Source: Corallococcus carmarthensis | Lineage (GTDB): Bacteria; Myxococcota; Myxococcia; Myxococcales; Myxococcaceae | Direction: 5' to 3' | Assembly (NCBI RefSeq): GCF_003611695.1 | Contig: NZ_RAWE01000122.1 | Location: 1-28,986, forward strand | Length of the DNA stretch: 28,986 nucleotides | Shown: piece by piece, positions 1,953 through 19,125 of the stretch | Layout of the letters: every line of letters begins with the position of its first letter | How positions within the stretch are numbered: the first letter of the stretch is position 1 | The notes under the pieces: generated by a model | Database searches by the model: none | Seen by the model: the letters and a program-made list of their open reading frames with translations, nothing else | Told to the model about the DNA's origin: nothing | Made by a program: the position numbers and the translations under genes

Positions 1953-3590
1953 CTACGCGTTGCGGCGCACCATCGCGACGTCGTAGTGGCGGTCCGTCAC
2001 GTAGCCGTTCGCGGCCTTGCCGGGGCGGTACATGTTCCCGGTCTTGTCATCCACGTAGAAGCGGTTGTTCGGGTTCGTGTCCTTGCCCTTGCTGGCGTTG
2101 GTCGTGCCCGGGTCGTGGAACGTGTAGTAGGTGCGGCCCTTGTCGTCGACGCCACGGCCCGTGATGGTCACGAAGTGGTCCGTGAGGCCGTCCGCGTTGT
2201 AGGTCGCGTCCTTGTGGCTCACGCCCACGACCACCGGCTTGCCGGAGTCCAGCTGCTTGTCGATGTAGTTGCGGCCCTCGGCGGCCTTCTTCGAGTCCAC
2301 CGTCAGCGCGCCGACGCTGTTCTCGCTCTTGCCCACCTGGATGCGGCGGTCGGGGCCCAGGACGTTCGCGCCTGACGCGCCCGCCATCGCCGTCGCGGCC
2401 TTGAAGCACGCCGTGTCGCTCGCGGTGTAGCCGTGGCCGTTCTCGAACTGGCTGTAGTACGGCACCTTCACGTGCACCGCGGGACGGTCCTTGGCCCCGG
2501 CCACCTGCTGCGTGTCCGTGCGGTCCGCCTCCGTGGTGGGCTTGGAGGTGTTCGTGCCCGGCTTCGAGCCGTTGCTCACCGACGGGGGAACGACGCCCGT
2601 GTTGGTGTTGCCCGGCTTGGAGTCGTTGCTCACCGACGGGGGAACGACACCCGTGTTGGTGTTGGCCGGCTTCGTCGTGGTGGCGCCCGACTGCTCCTTC
2701 TTGAGCAGGGCCAGCGCGTCCTTCACCTCCGACTTGAAGCGGTTGGCCACGCCCTTCTGCACGTCCTTGGAGTTGCCGGAGAAGTGCACCAGGGTGCCGC
2801 TGGCGTTGGTGCGGCCGCGCTCGGCGTAGATGTCCTTGATGAGCTGCTCGTCGCTCACCTTCGCGGGATCGCGGCCGGCCAGCGCCTTCTTGAAGATGTC
2901 ATCCGCCGCGCCCGGGCCATGCTGCACGGAGGTGGACCAGGCCACGTCGCGCAGCGCCGCGGACCGCTTGTCCAGGTCGATGCCCGTCGCCTTCTTGATG
3001 TTGGCCGCGCCGGGGTCGTAGTGCGTGGCCTTGATGTAGTCGTGCTGCGCCTTGTCGAAGCCCTTCGGGTCCTTCGCCGCCAGCTGCTTCCACGCGGAGG
3101 AGAACTCCGCGGAGCCCGGCTTGCTGCCCGACAGCGCCTTGTAGAAGTCCGGGTTCGTCTTCTTCAGCGAGTTGACGAAGGACTGCGCGGACCCGTTCGC
3201 GGACGCGAACTGGTAGGAGCCGTAGGACACGCCGCCCTTGTCGCCCTTGCCCGTGGACACGGTGCCGGGGCCGCGCGCCTCGTACTTGCGGCTCAGCCCG
3301 CCCAGCTCCCCGCCGGCCGTGCTGGTGGAGGACGTCGTCGTGGAGGGCGTCGTCGCCTTCGCGCCGTCGGTGGACTGCGTGAAGCTGTCGCCCGACGTCT
3401 TCGTCCCCGCGCTCGACTTGGTGCCCTTCGTCTCGAAGCCGTCCTTCACCTTGAGCTGCTGGCCCACCAGGATCTTGTTCGGATCCTTGATGTTGTTCGC
3501 CTTGGCCAGATCCGCGACAGAGGTGTTGTAGCGCTTCGCGATCTCCGAAAGCGTGTCGCCAGAACGGACGCGGATGTTGGAGACGGTCAT
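1953..3590 (-). CDS. Multidomain peptidoglycan-directed protein: N-terminal LysM, a central domain with a GGxSYGxYQ motif (muramidase/GH108-like, tentative), two 18-aa tandem repeats, and a C-terminal C39-like (papain-fold) cysteine peptidase domain. No signal peptide.
   Basis: The LysM consensus [42 protein letters not shown] sits at the N-terminus. The repeats are [18 protein letters not shown] / [18 protein letters not shown]. The C-terminal part has [10 protein letters not shown]...[14 protein letters not shown] and a downstream DHFVTITG, giving a Cys/His pair in C39_2-like order. An AGGGGG Shine-Dalgarno-like motif lies upstream of ATG 3590. Confidence 0.7.
2557..2664. repeat. 54-bp direct tandem repeat (2 units, about 93% identical) inside the LysM gene
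   Basis: cccggcttcgagccgttgctcaccgacgggggaacgacgcccgtgttggtgttg is followed by a near-identical unit. It encodes the [13 protein letters not shown][D/G]SKPG repeats on the minus strand. Confidence 0.9.
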
Positions 3591-3721
3591 GGGGAGCCCC
3601 CTCGTGTCAGGCCGCGAACACAGGCGCCGCGGACGTGCTTGGATTGCCGTGATTATCGAAAGGCAATGCGATCAGTTTCGCATCCCCAGTCACAATCGTG
3701 TCAAACCAGTGATTCCGGCAA

Positions 3722-3757
3722 CTTCAGTTTCAGCGGATCGATCCGCCGTGACTGAAG
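3722..3757. promoter_or_regulatory. Palindromic element in the AT-richer divergent intergenic region between the LysM gene and the 3782 gene
   Basis: cttcag-tttca-GCGGATCGATCCGC-cgtga-ctgaag has a perfect 14-bp core palindrome at 3733-3746 flanked by 6-bp inverted arms. A second inverted repeat, attgcc-N13-ggcaat, lies at 3643-3667. Confidence 0.35.
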
Positions 3758-3781
3758 AACCCGCTCAGGAGGCCCAACCGG

Positions 3782-4816
3782 ATGTCCAGGATCCAACCGG
3801 ATTTCAAAAGTGTGGCAATACTGTTTGCCATTTGTGTCACGGGCGCAGTCCCAGACGCCTCGGCCCAGGGGCCTGAAGGACTCACCGGGGTCTATTCGAA
3901 CAAGCAGGGACGCCTGGCCATCGTCGAGGGGAGCAACGAGACGCTCGTGCACTTCTCGGGGTCGTTCCCGCAGGGCAACAGCGCGGGCACCTGCGATTGC
4001 GCGTGGGTCGTCCAGAAGAAGACGGCCACGGCCTGGACCCTGGGCCAGGCGGACGACCCGGAGCCCTGGACGCTGCGCGTCAATCCCAAGCAGTTCGTCC
4101 TGGAGTCAGGCCCGACGCCTCAGTGTTGCGGCGCGGGCTACCCGGGCAAGGACACGTTCGCCCGGAGCACGTCCAAGCCGCTGGGCATCTGCAAGGTGAA
4201 GGCGTCCAAGGCGGGCTTCCACGCGTCGGACGCGGCCAACACCGCGCGCAAGGCGTTCGTGGTGTCCGGCGACGCGGTGGAGGCGTACGTCGACCCGGTG
4301 GAGCCGGACTTCCTCGCCGCGCGCTTCCAGGGCCCGCAGAAGGCCACGGCGGGGCTGCTCAAGCGCGAGGACCTGGACTGCTCGGCGGAATCAGCGCCCA
4401 CGGCCGCCAAGGCGCCGGTGGCCGCGGACAAGCTCCAGCCTTTCGCGGGGACGTGGGTGGAGCTGACACGCCAGGGAAAGGGCTTCGTCGTCCTCAAGCC
4501 CTGTTCGGCCGCGACGCGCAGCTTTACCGTCAAGCCCGCGACGGGCGAGGTGGAGGTGCAGTTGGGTCAGGAGGCCACGACGCTCAAGGTGACGTCCGTG
4601 GAGCCCGGAAAGGGCACCGGGGCCTGGGTGCTGGGGCTCACGGCGTCGGACGGCAAGCCGGAGGCGCTCCAGTGGAAGACGGCCGACGCCGCGAAGGGCA
4701 CCGTGACCGTCACCAGCCCGGACCTCTTCTCCCAGAGCCACGACTACGTGCGCCAGGAGAAGAAGTCCGGCTTCCCGTCCAAGCAGGAGACGGGGTGCGA
4801 CGAGTACGAGCGCTAA
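3782..4816 (+). CDS. Secreted hypothetical protein with an N-terminal signal peptide and several Cys pairs
   Basis: AGGAGG lies 9 nt upstream of ATG 3782. The N-terminus MSRIQPDFKSVAILFAICVTGAVPDASAQ is signal-peptide like. The 344-aa ORF has GC3-rich codon usage. Its stop overlaps the stop of the convergent 4813..6381 gene. Confidence 0.6.
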   Translation: MSRIQPDFKSVAILFAICVTGAVPDASAQGPEGLTGVYSNKQGRLAIVEGSNETLVHFSGSFPQGNSAGTCDCAWVVQKKTATAWTLGQADDPEPWTLRVNPKQFVLESGPTPQCCGAGYPGKDTFARSTSKPLGICKVKASKAGFHASDAANTARKAFVVSGDAVEAYVDPVEPDFLAARFQGPQKATAGLLKREDLDCSAESAPTAAKAPVAADKLQPFAGTWVELTRQGKGFVVLKPCSAATRSFTVKPATGEVEVQLGQEATTLKVTSVEPGKGTGAWVLGLTASDGKPEALQWKTADAAKGTVTVTSPDLFSQSHDYVRQEKKSGFPSKQETGCDEYER

Positions 4817-6381
4817 CGCGCCCGTGAACGCCGCCGGGCGCGGAGAACCCCGCCGAGCAGCAGCGCGACGAGCGCACCGGACAAGGGGCCTCCCGCCGCC
4901 TGGCAGCCACCGTCATCGTCCGGCGTGCGCGGATCATCGATGGGCTCCACGGGCCTGCCAGCGTCGACGGTGCCCGCGTCCATGCCGGCATCGGACGTCC
5001 CGGCATCGGCGGTCCCGGCGTCCGTGCCCGCATCCTGGGCATCGAGAGGCGCGCAGGACGCGGCCTGACCGGTGGCCGCGATGCACAGCCGGCCATAGCG
5101 CCCCAGCCCTTCGTTCCGCCCGTCCACGACCGCGACCACCACGCGCGTGGCGTCGCCGGAGGCCACCTGGGCGCGCAGGGCTTCAGGCCCGTCCGCGGTC
5201 ACCACTCGAAGCACGGCGTCGTCCGTGACGGCCGCGAGGACCAGGTGCAGCGCGGCCGGGTCGGTGCCCGGCTCGGGCTCGAACGAGGCCCCCACGAAGG
5301 ACGCGCCGCCGGGGACCTCGAAGAGCCGCGAGGCCGCCGCGGCGACGCGCACGCGGTCCTGCGTGTGGGGCAGCGCCACCGCCGGCGCCGACACCGGCGC
5401 ATAGCCCTCCCCTCGCGCGTAGCCGAACCCTGGCGTCGCGCGCGGGCCGGTGCCCAGGTTCCACGTGGCGAACAAGGTGAAGGCCGCGTCGAAGCTGGAG
5501 GCGAAGTCGCGGCGCAGGCAGGTGTCCAGCAGCACCGGCCAGCGGGCCTCGGGCTGCCGCACGGACTCCTCCAGGAGCGCGACGAGCGCACCGTCTCCGT
5601 AGTGCTCGCCGAGGAACTGGAAGAAGAGCCCCGCGCCGTAGGTGAAGCTCACGCCCGGCCCTGCCGGGTCCAGCGTCAGGGTGCTGTCCGGGCTGATCAT
5701 GTAGCCGCGGGTGAAGTTCTCCAGGTCATCGAGCGCGGGCTCGAAGCGCTCGGTGGCCCAGACGGCGGTGCCTTCCGAGGCGATGCCGCCCAGGCCGGGC
5801 CGGTAGGCGGCCTGGACCGCGTGGAAGAACTCGTGGCTGGAGAGGATCTCCACGGCCTCGGAGTCGGACGGGTAGCTGTAGCCCGCGAAGTCGTTCTCCT
5901 GAAGCATGAAGCCCGTGCAGCGCGTGGTGCCGTCCAGGCAGGTCTCCTGGCGGAAGGCGCCGTCACCAATCCCCGCGAAGTCCACCAGGTACACGTCGAA
6001 GCGGCCATCGCCGCCGTCGTCCCCGGCCGGATTCGTGTCGTCGGGCGGCAGACGGAAGCCCAGGCCCGCGTAGAACGTCGCCACGCGTTCGTAGGTGCGC
6101 CCGACGAGCTCCACGAAGTCGGGCACGCCGCTGCCATCCGCGTCCGCCGCGGGCACGGCGTGCTTGCCCTGACGGGTGAAGTGGATGCGGAAGCGCCCGC
6201 CCGGCGACAGCGCGGACTCCACCGTGTCCTCGGGCAGGTAGCGCGGCTCGGGCGAGGTGGGCGAGGTGGGCCGGCTGGATTCGGCGGCCAACCCTGCCAC
6301 GGCCTCCCGCTCGTGCGGGAGGCCGCGCGGGGTCCCCGCGCCAGTCAGCAGCAGCAGCAGCGTGGGAACCCCGAGCGTCAT
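4813..6381 (-). CDS. Secreted HExxH zinc-metallopeptidase-like protein with a DAGT-repeat linker and a MYXO-CTERM-like C-terminal sorting tail
   Basis: The start is taken at the internal Met MTLGVPTLLLLLTGAGT (signal peptide). Its ATG overlaps the TGA of the upstream lipoprotein gene in an ATGA arrangement. The motif SSHEFFHAVQ (HExxH) is present. The C-terminus has the repeats DAGTDAGTADAGTSDAGMDAGTVDAG, then GGCQAAGG...LVALLLGGVLRARRRSRAR, matching the GGC / hydrophobic / Arg-rich pattern of MYXO-CTERM. The ORF track extends it to 6798, but that part overlaps the upstream gene. Confidence 0.6.
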   Translation of the reverse strand: MTLGVPTLLLLLTGAGTPRGLPHEREAVAGLAAESSRPTSPTSPEPRYLPEDTVESALSPGGRFRIHFTRQGKHAVPAADADGSGVPDFVELVGRTYERVATFYAGLGFRLPPDDTNPAGDDGGDGRFDVYLVDFAGIGDGAFRQETCLDGTTRCTGFMLQENDFAGYSYPSDSEAVEILSSHEFFHAVQAAYRPGLGGIASEGTAVWATERFEPALDDLENFTRGYMISPDSTLTLDPAGPGVSFTYGAGLFFQFLGEHYGDGALVALLEESVRQPEARWPVLLDTCLRRDFASSFDAAFTLFATWNLGTGPRATPGFGYARGEGYAPVSAPAVALPHTQDRVRVAAAASRLFEVPGGASFVGASFEPEPGTDPAALHLVLAAVTDDAVLRVVTADGPEALRAQVASGDATRVVVAVVDGRNEGLGRYGRLCIAATGQAASCAPLDAQDAGTDAGTADAGTSDAGMDAGTVDAGRPVEPIDDPRTPDDDGGCQAAGGPLSGALVALLLGGVLRARRRSRAR

Positions 6382-7430
6382 CACGGCAGGTAGGCCCACC
6401 GCAGGCGGATCGACCCCGCGCTGGTCGACGAGCTCACCGAGCCCGTCGTGTCGCACTGCGCCTGCACCGTGGGCTCGTAGTACGCCTTGACCTGCAGCTT
6501 CGCGTGACGGCCGTCCGCCAACTGGAGGATGTAGACCTTGTTCGTCATCTGGAGGCAGCTGGCGTAGGTCCAGAACGAGAGGGTCTGGGTCGCCGGGCTG
6601 CCCAGGCCATACTCGTCCCCGCTGAACGTGCAGGTGTCGGGGGTGTAGTAGTTCTCCGTCTTGAACTGCGCATCCACGGGCACGGACGTCACCGATTCGA
6701 ACGTCGTGCCGTCCGGCGTCTGCGCCACCGCCACGCACGACGGGCCGGAGACGCCGCTGTTGAAGCGGACGACGTACCGGCGCACCGCGACGTCCCACGC
6801 CGTCGAGCTCAGCGCGGCCTGGTCATCGATGGCCACCTTCTGGAGCCCCGTCGCCGTGAAGCGCGCGTAGGTGTACGACTCCGGCACGCTCGTGCCACCC
6901 GCGCGGCCGTCCAGGAACGTGAGGAACTCGCCCTGCGTCGTGCCCTCCTCGGTCACGCCACCGCTGGCGACGACGGTGCGGAGCCTGAGCCGGTCGATGC
7001 TCTGCTCCGTGCAGGCCACGGTGTTGCGGCACAGCTCCGCGCCGCCGTCCGTGGGAGTGCCCGCGTCGGTCTCCGTCCCGGCGTCCGTCTGCGTGCCCGC
7101 GTCCGTCTGCGTGCCCGCGTCGGTGCCCGTCCCCGCGTCCGTCTGCGTGCCCGCGTCGGTGCCCGTCCCCGCATCCGTCTCGCCGCCGGTGCCCGCGTCG
7201 TTCTCGGGCTCCTCGGGCGGCGTCAGGGTGCGCAGCTCGCACGTGTTGTCGGCGGTGCAGACGTACGCCTTGCCCGTGGGGGCCGCGCCCAGATCGCGGC
7301 AGTCGAATGCGTCCACGCACTCGTCGCCGTTGCATCCCGGCACCACCGCGGCCAGCGCGAGGGCCGCCAGGACCCCCATGCCGTACCACCGCGCGCCGCT
7401 CTTCCGGACCACCCCTCCAGGGTTGCTCAT
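6381..7430 (-). CDS. Lipoprotein with a Cys-rich N-terminal module, a TDAGT(Q/G) hexapeptide repeat linker and a C-terminal domain of about 220 aa with unknown function
   Basis: From ATG 7430 the N-terminus is MSNPGGVVRKSGARWYGMGVLAALALAAVVPGC, with a VPGC lipobox. AAGGTG lies 6 nt upstream. Alternative starts are GTG 7439 and ATG 7379. The linker is TDAGTGTDAGTQTDAGTGTDAGTQTDAGTQTDAGTETDAGT. The gene lies 85 nt downstream of the MVP stop on the same strand. Confidence 0.7.
   Translation of the reverse strand: MSNPGGVVRKSGARWYGMGVLAALALAAVVPGCNGDECVDAFDCRDLGAAPTGKAYVCTADNTCELRTLTPPEEPENDAGTGGETDAGTGTDAGTQTDAGTGTDAGTQTDAGTQTDAGTETDAGTPTDGGAELCRNTVACTEQSIDRLRLRTVVASGGVTEEGTTQGEFLTFLDGRAGGTSVPESYTYARFTATGLQKVAIDDQAALSSTAWDVAVRRYVVRFNSGVSGPSCVAVAQTPDGTTFESVTSVPVDAQFKTENYYTPDTCTFSGDEYGLGSPATQTLSFWTYASCLQMTNKVYILQLADGRHAKLQVKAYYEPTVQAQCDTTGSVSSSTSAGSIRLRWAYLP
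7051..7200. repeat. About 8 tandem units of an 18-bp repeat (gtgcccgcgtccgtctgc and variants)
   Basis: Seen directly in the sequence. It encodes the TDAGTx repeats of the lipoprotein on the minus strand. Confidence 0.9.
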
Positions 7431-7524
7431 CGTCTTCACCTTTCGATGCGGAGTCCCGCCGTCGTTCGAAAGGGACGATCTCTATTCGATAACGATTCTC
7501 ATTTTCAATATCGTTCTCCCAACT

Positions 7525-17301: not shown

Positions 17302-17460
17302 GCATTCGAACAACCAGCGCAGCGGGGGTCTTCCGTATTCAGACCAGAAAGACACGCGGGGGGCCATGACGGCGCCCGCTCTGCCCCACAAGGCTTGAGT
17401 GGTGAAGCTGGTTCAAGAAATCCAGCAACACAAACCGCTGCGATATCGACTTGCACGACC

Positions 17461-18411
17461 ATGAAAACCCCTGAGAGACCTCATCGGAACCCGATGACCT
17501 TCATTGCAATGGTCATCGCTTTGATTTCCAGCCTCCCCAGCCCCGCGCATGCGCAGTCGTTCTGCTATTCGAACAGCGGCTCCACTTGCTACTACGTTTG
17601 TGGTCCATCGAAGCCGACTGCCCCCTACGGCACGATTCACCAGTGCACATGCGATGGCTCCTCCATGAACCTCTCTCCCTACGGTTCAGAGATGGGACCG
17701 ACATGTAACAGCATCCTCAGCACTTGCCTGACCACCGGAACAGGCGCTCCATCGAGTTGGACAACTTGCCCCCAGTGGCCGTGCCAGCCCGGCCAAGCAT
17801 GCGTGACCTCGTCCGGGTGCAATGGCACTTGCGTATTCACGCCACCCTCCGGCAGTCAGAGCACCCCTCCTGTCGAATGCGTTGCGCCGCCTTCAAGCCA
17901 GGCATGTGGTAGTACGTGCTGCGGACCCGATCAAATCTGCTCCAATGAGACCTGCAAGCCGCGCTGTGGAGGCGCCCCGTATGACCCGGCAACCCAGTGC
18001 TGTGAAAGCCAGGAGGTCTTGTCAAAGCTCCAGATAGCGGATCTGTCCAAGTGTCCCCATCGCACTGCCAGGCCCGGCTGGGATCCCAATGATCCCAGCA
18101 ACCTCAATGCCTGTGGCCCATCAGGGTCGAAACTCCCGGTTCCCGACTCCTACGGAGCGGCTGACTTCCGACCCGGCTGCAACGCGCACGACGCCTGCTA
18201 CGGGACCTGCAACAACAACAAGCTCATTTGTGACACAGGCATGCACAGCGCACTGGAGGCGTCCTGCAAGAGTGCCTACAGCAACTCCTCCATGGCCATT
18301 CAGAGGTCCCGCTGCTTGAAGGTCGCCGCTGTCTACGCTGTCTCGGTGATAGCTGGAGGGGGTACCGCGTACGACAACGCCCAGAAGGCAGCGTGCATTT
18401 GTTGTCCCTGA
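17461..18411 (+). CDS. Secreted Cys-rich protein with a C-terminal phospholipase-A2-like domain (tentative)
   Basis: The signal peptide is MKTPERPHRNPMTFIAMVIALISSLPSPAHAQS; an alternative ATG lies at 17494. There are more than 30 Cys residues. The C-terminus has GCNAHDACYGTCN...C...C...AAVYAVSVIAGGG, i.e. the HD-x-x-Y catalytic dyad pattern of secreted and prokaryotic PLA2s. The gene is lower in GC than its neighbours. Confidence 0.55.
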   Translation: MKTPERPHRNPMTFIAMVIALISSLPSPAHAQSFCYSNSGSTCYYVCGPSKPTAPYGTIHQCTCDGSSMNLSPYGSEMGPTCNSILSTCLTTGTGAPSSWTTCPQWPCQPGQACVTSSGCNGTCVFTPPSGSQSTPPVECVAPPSSQACGSTCCGPDQICSNETCKPRCGGAPYDPATQCCESQEVLSKLQIADLSKCPHRTARPGWDPNDPSNLNACGPSGSKLPVPDSYGAADFRPGCNAHDACYGTCNNNKLICDTGMHSALEASCKSAYSNSSMAIQRSRCLKVAAVYAVSVIAGGGTAYDNAQKAACICCP

Positions 18412-18456
18412 CCCTGGCTGCAGCTACGAAGAGAACCTGAAACTGGGCAAACGACA

Positions 18457-19050
18457 ATGAAAAACACTGCCAGGACATATGTGGGTTTACTGCTTGCGGT
18501 TGCTTTCTCAGCGGCATGTTCCGACCGCCCAGCAGAGCCCTCCGCACCTCCTCCGGGCGCGGCATCACGTGCAGCGCTCCTACAGGACTTGTCGGGGACA
18601 TGGGTCGGCACCCTCTCAATGAGTGGCGCACAGTCCACGGACGTCCGCTTCGAAATCACGGACAACAATGGCCAGCTTTCAGGAGTGGCTTTCGACAAAG
18701 AGCCCAGCAGCTCTCAGTTCATCAGGACAGGGACGTTGTCGGGAACCCGCACCGGGAACACGGCTCAGTGGACAAGTGACGGTGACTCCGTTTCCGGTAC
18801 GCTGAGTGGCAGTTCGTTCGCGGGGACCTTCACCATCGCCAACGATGGGTTTGGGCAGTCATTGACAGCGCAGGTGAGCTTGCAGAAGTCTTCGTGCGTT
18901 CCGGAATCGGATGGAGCCTTCTGTTCTCGGAATGCCTTCGCCTGCGGGACCGCGGTGTCCGCGGACAACTGTGGTGTCCGGCGAGTCGTTGCGAGCTGCG
19001 GTGTGTGTGCACCAGGGACGTCGTGCACCCAGCAGAACACGTGTCAGTGA
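18457..19050 (+). CDS. Hypothetical lipoprotein with a Cys-rich C-terminal tail
   Basis: The N-terminus is MKNTARTYVGLLLAVAFSAACSD (lipobox). The protein is 197 aa. A terminator hairpin follows the gene. Confidence 0.6.
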   Translation: MKNTARTYVGLLLAVAFSAACSDRPAEPSAPPPGAASRAALLQDLSGTWVGTLSMSGAQSTDVRFEITDNNGQLSGVAFDKEPSSSQFIRTGTLSGTRTGNTAQWTSDGDSVSGTLSGSSFAGTFTIANDGFGQSLTAQVSLQKSSCVPESDGAFCSRNAFACGTAVSADNCGVRRVVASCGVCAPGTSCTQQNTCQ

Positions 19051-19085
19051 ATGGGCCTGCTTCGCTCTCAAGGAAGCCTGAACCC

Positions 19086-19125
19086 GAACATCTGTCCGTC
19101 CTGACTCCAGCACGGACAGATGTTC
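19086..19125. terminator. Perfect 14-bp-stem hairpin between convergent genes
   Basis: gaacatctgtccgt / cctgactccagc / acggacagatgttc, followed by ttgcc. Confidence 0.7.

Follow-up and report, generated by a model that had tools for sequence, protein, structure and literature searches.

A stretch of 28,986 nucleotides from the myxobacterium Corallococcus carmarthensis (RefSeq assembly GCF_003611695.1, contig NZ_RAWE01000122.1), hereafter the window, carries close to its left end a minus-strand gene for a 545-residue protein in which a peptidoglycan-binding LysM domain is followed by two predicted wall-degrading domains. Both of these catalytic domains are homologous to type VI secretion system (T6SS) effector domains that have been crystallised with their immunity proteins (4NOO/4NSO and 9JDD), the protein has no export signal, and beside it lies a divergently oriented gene whose product does carry one. 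The most economical reading is that hydrolase and partner form a self-contained two-gene effector-immunity module, namely a toxin acting in the periplasm together with its immunity protein, with a contact-dependent injector delivering the toxin; we give this a probability of about 0.6, roughly two-thirds of which falls on the T6SS specifically. The original prediction, made from the letters of the sequence and a list of open reading frames (ORFs), had proposed a peptidoglycan-degrading multi-domain effector lacking a Sec or lipoprotein signal, and the domain homologies and the leaderless N-terminus agree with it. The partner gene, which it did not mention, is the strongest contextual clue.

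Domain organization of the hydrolase

The AlphaFold (AF2) model, for which a 51-sequence alignment served as input, consists of a LysM domain, a helical glycosidase domain and an alpha/beta peptidase domain, with predicted local distance difference test (pLDDT) scores of ~90, and two disordered linkers between them (Table 1). When the model was compared with the PDB by Foldseek, the significant matches were three T6SS effector chains only, those of 4NOO, 4NSO and 9JDD, followed by weak matches to the papain family. The LysM domain, rightly placed at the extreme N-terminus by the original prediction, scores 60.8 bits against its Pfam family, well above the gathering cut-off of 20.9.

The central domain, which contains the motif GGVSYGSYQ, had been likened to muramidases of the GH108 type. 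Its muramidase-like kind stands, as it covers positions 1-182 of the 183-position profile of PF21277, 'Type VI secretion system spike protein VgrG3-like, C-terminal', with 178.2 bits against a cut-off of 27, and this match to a glycosidase-type family speaks against the absence of a glycosidase-like fold. The affinity to GH108 does not stand: no GH108 match appeared at E<=1, and the only other glycosidase match was a weak one to GH46 chitosanases (Pfam, E=4e-4). Among PDB sequences the domain matches the VgrG3C domain of Vibrio cholerae that was solved with TsiV3 (4NOO_A, E=4e-27; 4NSO likewise, E about 1e-27), and the alignment places Glu104 and Asp117 on the KYE...GD(x)GG motif of that protein (4NOO).

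The C-terminal domain matches 9JDD_A (E=6e-22, residues 372-519) and 9JG8_C (E=7e-21) among PDB sequences, both being entries entitled a type VI secretion system effector-immunity complex BtaeB CTD-BtaiB (CTD, C-terminal domain) from Bacteroides fragilis. Foldseek finds the same chain (9jdd_A, E=4e-13, template modelling (TM) score 0.71, 31% identity), and Cys395 and His472 align with the Cys and His of BtaeB. A C39-like papain peptidase had been suggested for this region, and the papain-like fold is borne out. Membership of the C39 families in Pfam is not, since neither Peptidase C39 (PF03412) nor its C39-like relative PF13529 gave a match at E<=1, and BtrH_N alone appeared (E=0.095); some homologs have weak, sub-threshold matches to PF13529 and also to BtrH_N (PF14399). 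Conservation of the candidate catalytic residues was assessed in a 21-member alignment from six genera, and the divergent paralogues P0045 and P0048 have lost one or other of the two catalytic sites. The enzymatic activities of both domains are predicted ones.

The linkers are the variable parts of the protein. Linker 1 differs in length and sequence among genera, and in some homologs a second LysM is inserted here. Linker 2 holds a repeat that had been described as two exact copies of 18 residues; residues 307-324 and 325-342 are in fact identical at 16 of 18 positions, and at 50 of 54 nucleotides. Because other Corallococcus species carry a single copy of the 18-residue unit, and the duplication is seen only in C. 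carmarthensis, it is a recent slip in a variable low-complexity spacer, with no evident function. No functional weight for the repeats is supported.

Start codon and export signals

A single gene had been proposed for positions 1953-3590, with no strand given, and it is indeed one ORF, found on the minus strand. Its third-position GC of 0.97 is like that of the other real genes of the window (GC ~69%), and the top database match of the product, which has a predicted mass of 58 kDa, is a C. carmarthensis protein that is 99% identical. An in-frame stop at 3672-3674 precedes the ATG at 3590, which is the first ATG, GTG or TTG after that stop and is preceded by a Shine-Dalgarno-like stretch, GAGGGGG. 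Within residues 1-60 the Kyte-Doolittle hydropathy reaches 0.25 at most (11-residue window), the hydropathy scan found no transmembrane-like segment anywhere in the protein, and the LysM domain begins at residue 7, six residues after the initiator Met. Because no earlier start than the ATG at 3590 is possible, the N-terminus is of low hydropathy and LysM follows at once, a signal peptide is excluded and not merely missing; the absence of a signal peptide in the original prediction therefore survives refinement of the start, and the gene encodes no Sec, Tat or lipoprotein signal.

The same holds across the family. In a simple hydrophobicity test, signal-peptide-like N-termini occurred in 0/116 full-length homologs and in 3/165 relatives of the C-terminal domain. 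Given that none of the 116 homologs has such a signal, the leaderless state is a conserved property of the family and not an annotation error. Export by outer membrane exchange (OME), one of the routes offered previously, is left unsupported because the lipoprotein signal that SitA-type OME toxins require is absent: the protein has neither a lipobox Cys nor a hydrophobic N-terminus.

The divergent partner gene and the shared intergenic region

When all neighbours in the window were compared by tblastn with 32 related loci, the partner proved to be the sole neighbour kept beside the hydrolase outside Corallococcus. Every three-domain locus (in Corallococcus, Cystobacter, a Myxococcus sp., Pyxidicoccus, Archangium and Stigmatella) has the partner, divergent and ~135-200 bp away, and the remaining neighbours of these loci are unrelated between genera. 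The partner itself is annotated merely as 'hypothetical' and has no Pfam and no PHROG match. A signal-peptide-like N-terminus was found in 19/20 members of its family by the same hydrophobicity test, and because of this signal and of six invariant cysteines the partner very probably resides in the periplasm or outside the cell and has disulfide bonds.

The role of the partner is approached from its company. Its immunity function is probable, and we regard it as a candidate antidote to the hydrolase. The profile of its family showed no similarity to BtaiB or TsiV3 among PDB sequences, and hhalign found no internal duplication. A match to BtaiB, with an identity of 14%, is suggestive and not proof of homology; it was not reproduced by Foldseek, where 9jdd_B was not among the top 50. 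Hidden Markov models (HMMs) of the two partner domains, run against all ORFs of 41 loci, matched two-domain partners beside three-domain hydrolases and one orphan only, so that specificity could not be deduced by assigning either partner domain to one of the catalytic domains. Hyalangium gracile has an orphan copy consisting of the N-terminal partner domain alone, and orphan copies of immunity genes are common.

The intergenic region shared by the two genes is poorly conserved among genera, apart from an invariant CGAT(A/G)AT element and an invariant AAC ~20 nt further upstream. A scan of the region with the sigma-70 consensus found no promoter-like site, and a terminator scan gave a single terminator-like match, below chance expectation. 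The two elements may be a conserved hydrolase promoter, a function that is only putative because the sigma-70 scan found nothing.

Table 1. Positions in the window of the hydrolase gene, the partner gene, the region between them and their parts.
Feature	Position (nt)	Strand	Residues	Remarks
Whole ORF, LysM/VgrG3C-like/BtaeB-CTD-like candidate effector	1953..3590	minus	545 aa + stop codon	
LysM peptidoglycan-binding domain	3444..3572	minus	7-49	PF01476 E=1.2e-16; pLDDT ~90; Foldseek LysM matches
Linker 1, Ser/Thr-rich, disordered	3312..3437	minus	52-93	pLDDT <50
VgrG3-like C-terminal glycosidase domain	2727..3305	minus	96-288	PF21277 E=2e-52; Foldseek TM 0.78-0.80
Catalytic pair candidates	3279-3281; 3240-3242	minus	Glu104; Asp117	Both in at least 90% of 21 homologs
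Linker 2, disordered	2508..2678	minus	305-361	AlphaFold pLDDT
Tandem duplication	2565-2672	minus	307-342	Tandem Repeats Finder (TRF) array 2555-2674, period 54
BtaeB-CTD-like papain-fold cysteine peptidase/amidase domain (predicted)	1956..2477	minus	372-545	9JDD_A homology; pLDDT >90
Candidate triad	2406-2408; 2175-2177; 2112-2114	minus	Cys395; His472; Asp493	Each in at least 90% of family
Shared divergent intergenic region	3591..3781			Candidate hydrolase promoter; alignment of 10 loci, 6 genera
Invariant element CGAT(A/G)AT (here GATAAT)	3652-3657	minus		~61 nt upstream of hydrolase ATG
Partner gene, candidate periplasmic immunity protein	3782..4816	plus	344 aa	Signal peptide; co-occurrence with hydrolase
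Partner signal peptide	3782-3868	plus	1-29	Cleavage ...PDASA|Q
Partner N-terminal beta domain	3875-4387	plus	32-202	Six invariant Cys
Partner C-terminal beta domain	4412-4813	plus	211-344	

Wider family and exchange of domains

Three-domain proteins occur throughout Corallococcus, Cystobacter, Archangium, Pyxidicoccus and Stigmatella and in some Myxococcus, a patchy distribution that takes in only some Myxococcaceae and Archangiaceae. Their domains recur in shuffled relatives: LysM joined to VgrG3C only (proteins of about 300 aa, from Acidobacteria and others), the cysteine-peptidase domain only, preceded by LysM, PG_binding_1 or SH3, and VgrG3C with CHAP or M23. An exhaustive HMMER search found the C-terminal domain in 1,207 representative clusters, and in 20 long members that were scanned its fusions are nearly all wall-directed (Amidase_2, VanY/M15, SleB-like Hydrolase_2, LysM, SH3, PG_binding_1, VgrG3C); fusions to the T6SS markers MIX, FIX, PAAR or Rhs were absent from the 20 long family members scanned. 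One of the 20, P0278 (1,078 aa), joins an N-terminal eCIS_core domain (PF13699) to a lytic transglycosylase motif of the SLT-like type and the cysteine-peptidase domain, which suggests that extracellular contractile injection systems (eCISs) take up the cysteine-peptidase warhead as well. Judged by these architectures, the C-terminal domain behaves like a polymorphic cell-wall toxin module.

Two kinds of relatives have a single one of the two catalytic domains. In a paralogue conserved in Myxococcus (M. xanthus CP068048, L003 10001-11623), LysM and the cysteine-peptidase domain are retained around another central domain, for which no Pfam and no PDB sequence match was found; no partner homolog lies within 10 kb, and its neighbours are a phosphate-selective porin gene and an ATP-grasp-like gene. 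In two metagenomic loci whose homologs are labelled Acidobacteriota (L001 10001-10900 and L002 8488-9387), a leaderless 299-aa LysM+VgrG3C protein is encoded between an alanine racemase gene and a dienelactone-hydrolase gene, inside a housekeeping block of ribosomal-protein and DnaB genes, and no immunity-like neighbour and no secretion genes were seen at either locus.

Other members of the family were noted in passing. In P0138 (Nakamurella, L040) and P0146 (L039) the actinobacterial cysteine-peptidase domain follows a ~90-aa helical region with a W-x-G motif, and an NlpC/P60 gene lies downstream of P0138. A link of these two proteins to WXG100 proteins and the type VII secretion system (T7SS) was considered and dropped, there being no Pfam match to WXG100 or LXG and no T7SS genes within 10 kb, and the likeness is one of motif only. 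P0058 from Myxococcus landrumensis (L004 1-4819) is a LysM-less VgrG3C protein of 346 aa with a long disordered N-terminus; it lies ~5 kb from Rhs/YD-repeat toxin genes accompanied by DUF6968 genes, with an adjoining IS66 element, and these surroundings look like a toxin island.

Evolution of the two-gene locus

Within Corallococcus the pair diverges faster than its surroundings, with identities of 73-90% for the hydrolase and 75-95% for the partner against 94-97% for the flanking genes. In Corallococcus sp. RDP092CA (L031 10002-10004) a single clean deletion of 2,542 bp, corresponding to positions 2150-4691 of the window and with intact flanks, has taken residues 1 to ~480 of the hydrolase, the intergenic region and ~303/344 partner codons. 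This strain can be regarded as a natural double knockout, and both genes appear dispensable in a natural isolate. Another strain, CP114039 (L038 6190-8849), has the three-domain gene followed by an additional gene for a 282-aa protein of LysM and the cysteine-peptidase domain (P0122), after which comes an Exo_endo_phos gene that is absent from the window; the toxin locus has undergone a local expansion there. The faster divergence, the joint deletion, this gene gain and the orphan copy in H. gracile lend contextual support to the reading of the pair as an effector-immunity module.

Proposed mechanism, delivery and alternatives

In the mechanism that we propose, the toxin would be made in the cytoplasm without a signal peptide and would therefore never meet the producer's own wall while being made. 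Genes elsewhere in the genome would encode a contact-dependent contractile injection machine that exports it in one step and delivers it into the periplasm of neighbouring cells, where LysM would tether it to the sacculus. The glycan backbone would be the substrate of the VgrG3-type domain (Glu104/Asp117), and the peptide stems or cross-links that of the BtaeB-type cysteine peptidase (Cys395/His472/Asp493); with two types of bond cut, lysis would be faster than by either activity alone. Siblings would survive since their exported, disulfide-bonded two-domain partner would bind the incoming toxin in the periplasm and block it. Such a scheme agrees with the descriptions of VgrG3-TsiV3 and BtaeB-BtaiB, and with the way in which T6SS genes are organised in myxobacteria.

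The delivery machine is the weak link of this proposal, with the T6SS as the leading candidate and an eCIS the alternative. Dedicated export by a system such as the T6SS had been suggested for the protein; the homology of both catalytic domains to T6SS effectors fits that part of the suggestion, and a leaderless effector (0/116) adjoining an exported partner (19/20) is the combination expected of a T6SS effector that acts in the periplasm, but no T6SS genes lie nearby. As had been noticed before, secretion-system genes are absent from the 29-kb window. It had also been advised to look for homologs in prophage or T6SS contexts: no phage genes occur at ~20 related loci, and T6SS contexts are absent from the annotated ones. 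In M. xanthus a single 14-gene cluster encodes the T6SS apparatus, the effector-immunity loci are scattered round the chromosome, and the system is used mainly for kin discrimination (PMC10433427), and myxobacteria also carry phage-tail-like eCIS loci (PMC4122934).

Several observations weigh against an injector-delivered toxin with an immunity protein. The pair is divergently transcribed, and effector-immunity pairs mostly form operons read in one direction. Neither the window nor the surroundings (+/-10 kb) in five annotated loci (L003, L038, L042-L044) contain a gene for VgrG, Hcp, PAAR, an adaptor or an eCIS. A partner homolog is missing from the neighbourhood of the relatives with a single catalytic domain, namely the acidobacterial LysM+VgrG3C protein and the M. 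xanthus paralogue. For Corallococcus exiguus and Stigmatella erecta, T6SS genes are reported to be degenerate or absent (PMC10196010), and both species keep an intact hydrolase/partner pair.

This last point would suit a bacteriolytic enzyme released for predation, an explanation that we consider unlikely but take seriously. The hydrolase would leave the cell by a non-classical exit, that is, by lysis, in outer-membrane vesicles or through the Tad-like Kil system or T3SS* (a type III secretion system, T3SS), and would act on the walls of prey either from outside, in Gram-positives, or where the cells touch, with the partner as a self-protecting periplasmic inhibitor that guards against re-entering or leaking enzyme. 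We know of no export mechanism for leaderless LysM-first hydrolases, which counts against such an enzyme, and since an enzyme outside cannot reach the periplasm of its Gram-negative producer, immunity would be unnecessary. The best explanation of a periplasmic protein dedicated to immunity is a toxin that enters the periplasm of kin, and both catalytic domains have T6SS-delivered relatives. Predation is nevertheless favoured by the habits of the group, as myxobacteria lyse prey by secreted hydrolases and contact-dependent systems (PMC10849154, PMC10433427), LysM-domain genes are induced during M. xanthus predation (PMC10849154), and the T6SS of M. xanthus has not been linked to predation (PMC10433427). 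A leaderless Corallococcus GH19 lysozyme with an N-terminal LysM, C25GH19C, is predicted to be non-classically secreted (PMC10875029), but no secretome detection of the hydrolase was found, the supplement of that work (Corallococcus c25j21) holding GH19 sequences only. It is also conceivable, though improbable, that the leaderless LysM-first hydrolases (the present family, the M. xanthus paralogue, C25GH19C and the 300-aa acidobacterial LysM+VgrG3C protein) are a class that is not T6SS cargo and is exported by a pathway not recognised as handling them, for which Tad-like Kil, T3SS* or an eCIS could be the route in myxobacteria. The protein described here would then be one of the missing enzymes of contact-dependent prey lysis, and the partner would shield the predator's wall.

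An endogenous autolysin that remodels the wall of its own cell during growth, fruiting-body autolysis or myxospore formation, with the partner as a periplasmic regulator or inhibitor, strikes us as rather improbable. Orthology and synteny of the pair within Corallococcus, where it is not highly polymorphic, and a conserved promoter-like element suggesting regulated expression would agree with such a role, and the partnerless acidobacterial LysM+VgrG3C gene beside alanine racemase, in its housekeeping context, keeps it alive for the wider family. An autolysin needs a route to the periplasm, however, and none is encoded in the form of a Sec, Tat or lipoprotein signal. Moreover, RDP092CA does without both genes, the distribution is patchy, both domains come from toxin families, and the pair diverges faster than the flanking genes. 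Least of all do we expect a domesticated or remnant phage endolysin released by a holin or by lysis, and the present-day phage lysin that the original prediction had entertained is not upheld. Endolysins are modular and lack signal peptides, those of phages of Gram-negative bacteria carry the wall-binding domain N-terminally when modular, many endolysin families among the PHROGs are matched by the LysM domain, and one endolysin PHROG weakly by the C-terminal domain (E=3e-4). Yet the window and the ~20 related loci are devoid of holin, spanin, integrase and structural phage genes, the coverage of the protein by any phage record stays at or below about 50%, and endolysins come without exported immunity proteins. 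The phage homologs of the central domain (PHROGs and tblastn of a phage collection) sit in virion or tail proteins of 966-1925 aa from jumbo phages, some annotated 'putative VgrG protein', and not in endolysins.

Other genes of the window

The gene next to the partner varies within Corallococcus. In the window, a HmuY-like gene (6381-7439) and an adjoining minus-strand ORF (4813-6798), which overlap and of which the latter has an uncertain start, make up a cassette at 4813-7439 that is also present in L005, L008 and L031. In Corallococcus loci that lack this cassette (L006, L007, L009, L011), a vault-protein gene directly abuts the partner gene. The vault gene of the window (7525-9801, minus) encodes a 758-aa protein with the full domain set of a eukaryote-type major vault protein (Vault repeats 1-4 and MVP shoulder; E down to 9e-45), and this homolog is 94-97% conserved across Corallococcus species.

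Two tandem genes for GDSL-family lipases/acylhydrolases of 297 and 312 aa lie at 15304-17132 (minus). These genes and the hydrolase gene have an unusually low GC at the first codon position, 0.56-0.58, where most genes of the window have 0.63-0.79. Also, GC is lower (0.60-0.65 vs ~0.70) at ~10000-11700 and 17100-19100, where no ORF passed the third-position GC (GC3) filter used for gene calling.

Novelty and implications

Because both warheads belong to known T6SS toxin families, the hydrolase does not represent a new category. The novelty lies in the fusion architecture of LysM, VgrG3C and a BtaeB-like domain, in the unannotated two-domain partner family, which lacks a Pfam model, and in the orphan, divergent, genus-spanning two-gene module; the literature searched yielded no publication on the LysM+VgrG3C+BtaeB-like family. 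If the pair is indeed an effector and its immunity protein, it represents an uncharacterised effector architecture in which wall-degrading warheads of the Vibrio type and the Bacteroides type stand behind a LysM anchor, as well as a new immunity protein family, in a conserved and experimentally tractable two-gene module of predatory and social bacteria. With delivery by a plain T6SS, it would extend the catalogue of effectors solidly but incrementally. Given that species reported to be without an intact T6SS have kept the pair, its export could reveal the cargo of a second route (eCIS, Kil/Tad or T3SS*), and few myxobacterial effectors of these contact-killing routes are known so far. Lysins that combine two activities with a wall-binding module also have practical appeal as enzybiotics.

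Comparison with known systems

VgrG3C of V. cholerae is a periplasm-acting, peptidoglycan-degrading T6SS toxin that is neutralised by a periplasmic immunity protein. The central domain of the hydrolase belongs to the same Pfam family as VgrG3C in its complex with TsiV3 (4NOO, 4NSO), is ~30% identical to it with a TM score of about 0.8, and keeps the Glu/Asp pair of its motif. The domain differs in that it stands free behind LysM and a linker, with a second enzyme after it and without VgrG, gp27 or gp5 domains; neither sequence nor fold comparison reveals a TsiV3-like protein, and T6SS genes are absent from the surroundings of the gene.

The C-terminal domain is homologous to the CTD of B. fragilis BtaeB (Bfe7), known in complex with BtaiB (9JDD, 9JG8/9JG9; Li et al. 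2025, Cell Host Microbe 33:1901, cited in PMC13402684), with the Cys and His aligned and the third residue of the triad being Glu in BtaeB and Asp here. BtaeB, a protein of 617 aa, is required for the T6SS to function, and its N-terminal portion acts together with an adaptor, BtapC, and a co-effector, BtpeA. The N-terminal part of the hydrolase is unrelated to it, consisting of LysM and a glycosidase, and no BtapC-like adaptor or T6SS gene was found in the window or the related loci. The partner, with 344 aa and two domains, also differs from BtaiB, which has ~125 aa. Peptidase_C39_2 (PF13529) and BtrH_N (PF14399) share the Cys...His...Asp arrangement and the papain-like fold, but the protein falls below their curated thresholds, with PF13529 unlisted. 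True C39 peptidases process the leader peptides of bacteriocins on ABC transporters, a function unrelated to the present context.

The genomic setting resembles that of the Pseudomonas aeruginosa pairs Tse1-Tsi1 and Tse3-Tsi3, which are orphan effector-immunity pairs remote from the apparatus genes. In these pairs, and in tsxEI and other scattered effector-immunity loci of M. xanthus (PMC10433427), a leaderless effector and an adjoining immunity gene likewise make up a module of two genes at a distance from the T6SS cluster, and tsxEI is, as the present pair, conserved rather than hypervariable. All of them are co-directional operons with demonstrated T6SS dependence, whereas the pair described here is divergent and known from sequence alone. 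Tse4 of Acinetobacter baumannii and TseP of Aeromonas are bifunctional T6SS effectors that cleave both glycan and peptide and bring about stronger lysis. They belong to other domain families and are tied to vgrG clusters, and the present gene is an orphan with an N-terminal LysM; the likeness lies in the union of glycan- and peptide-cleaving activities, predicted for the hydrolase, in one polypeptide.

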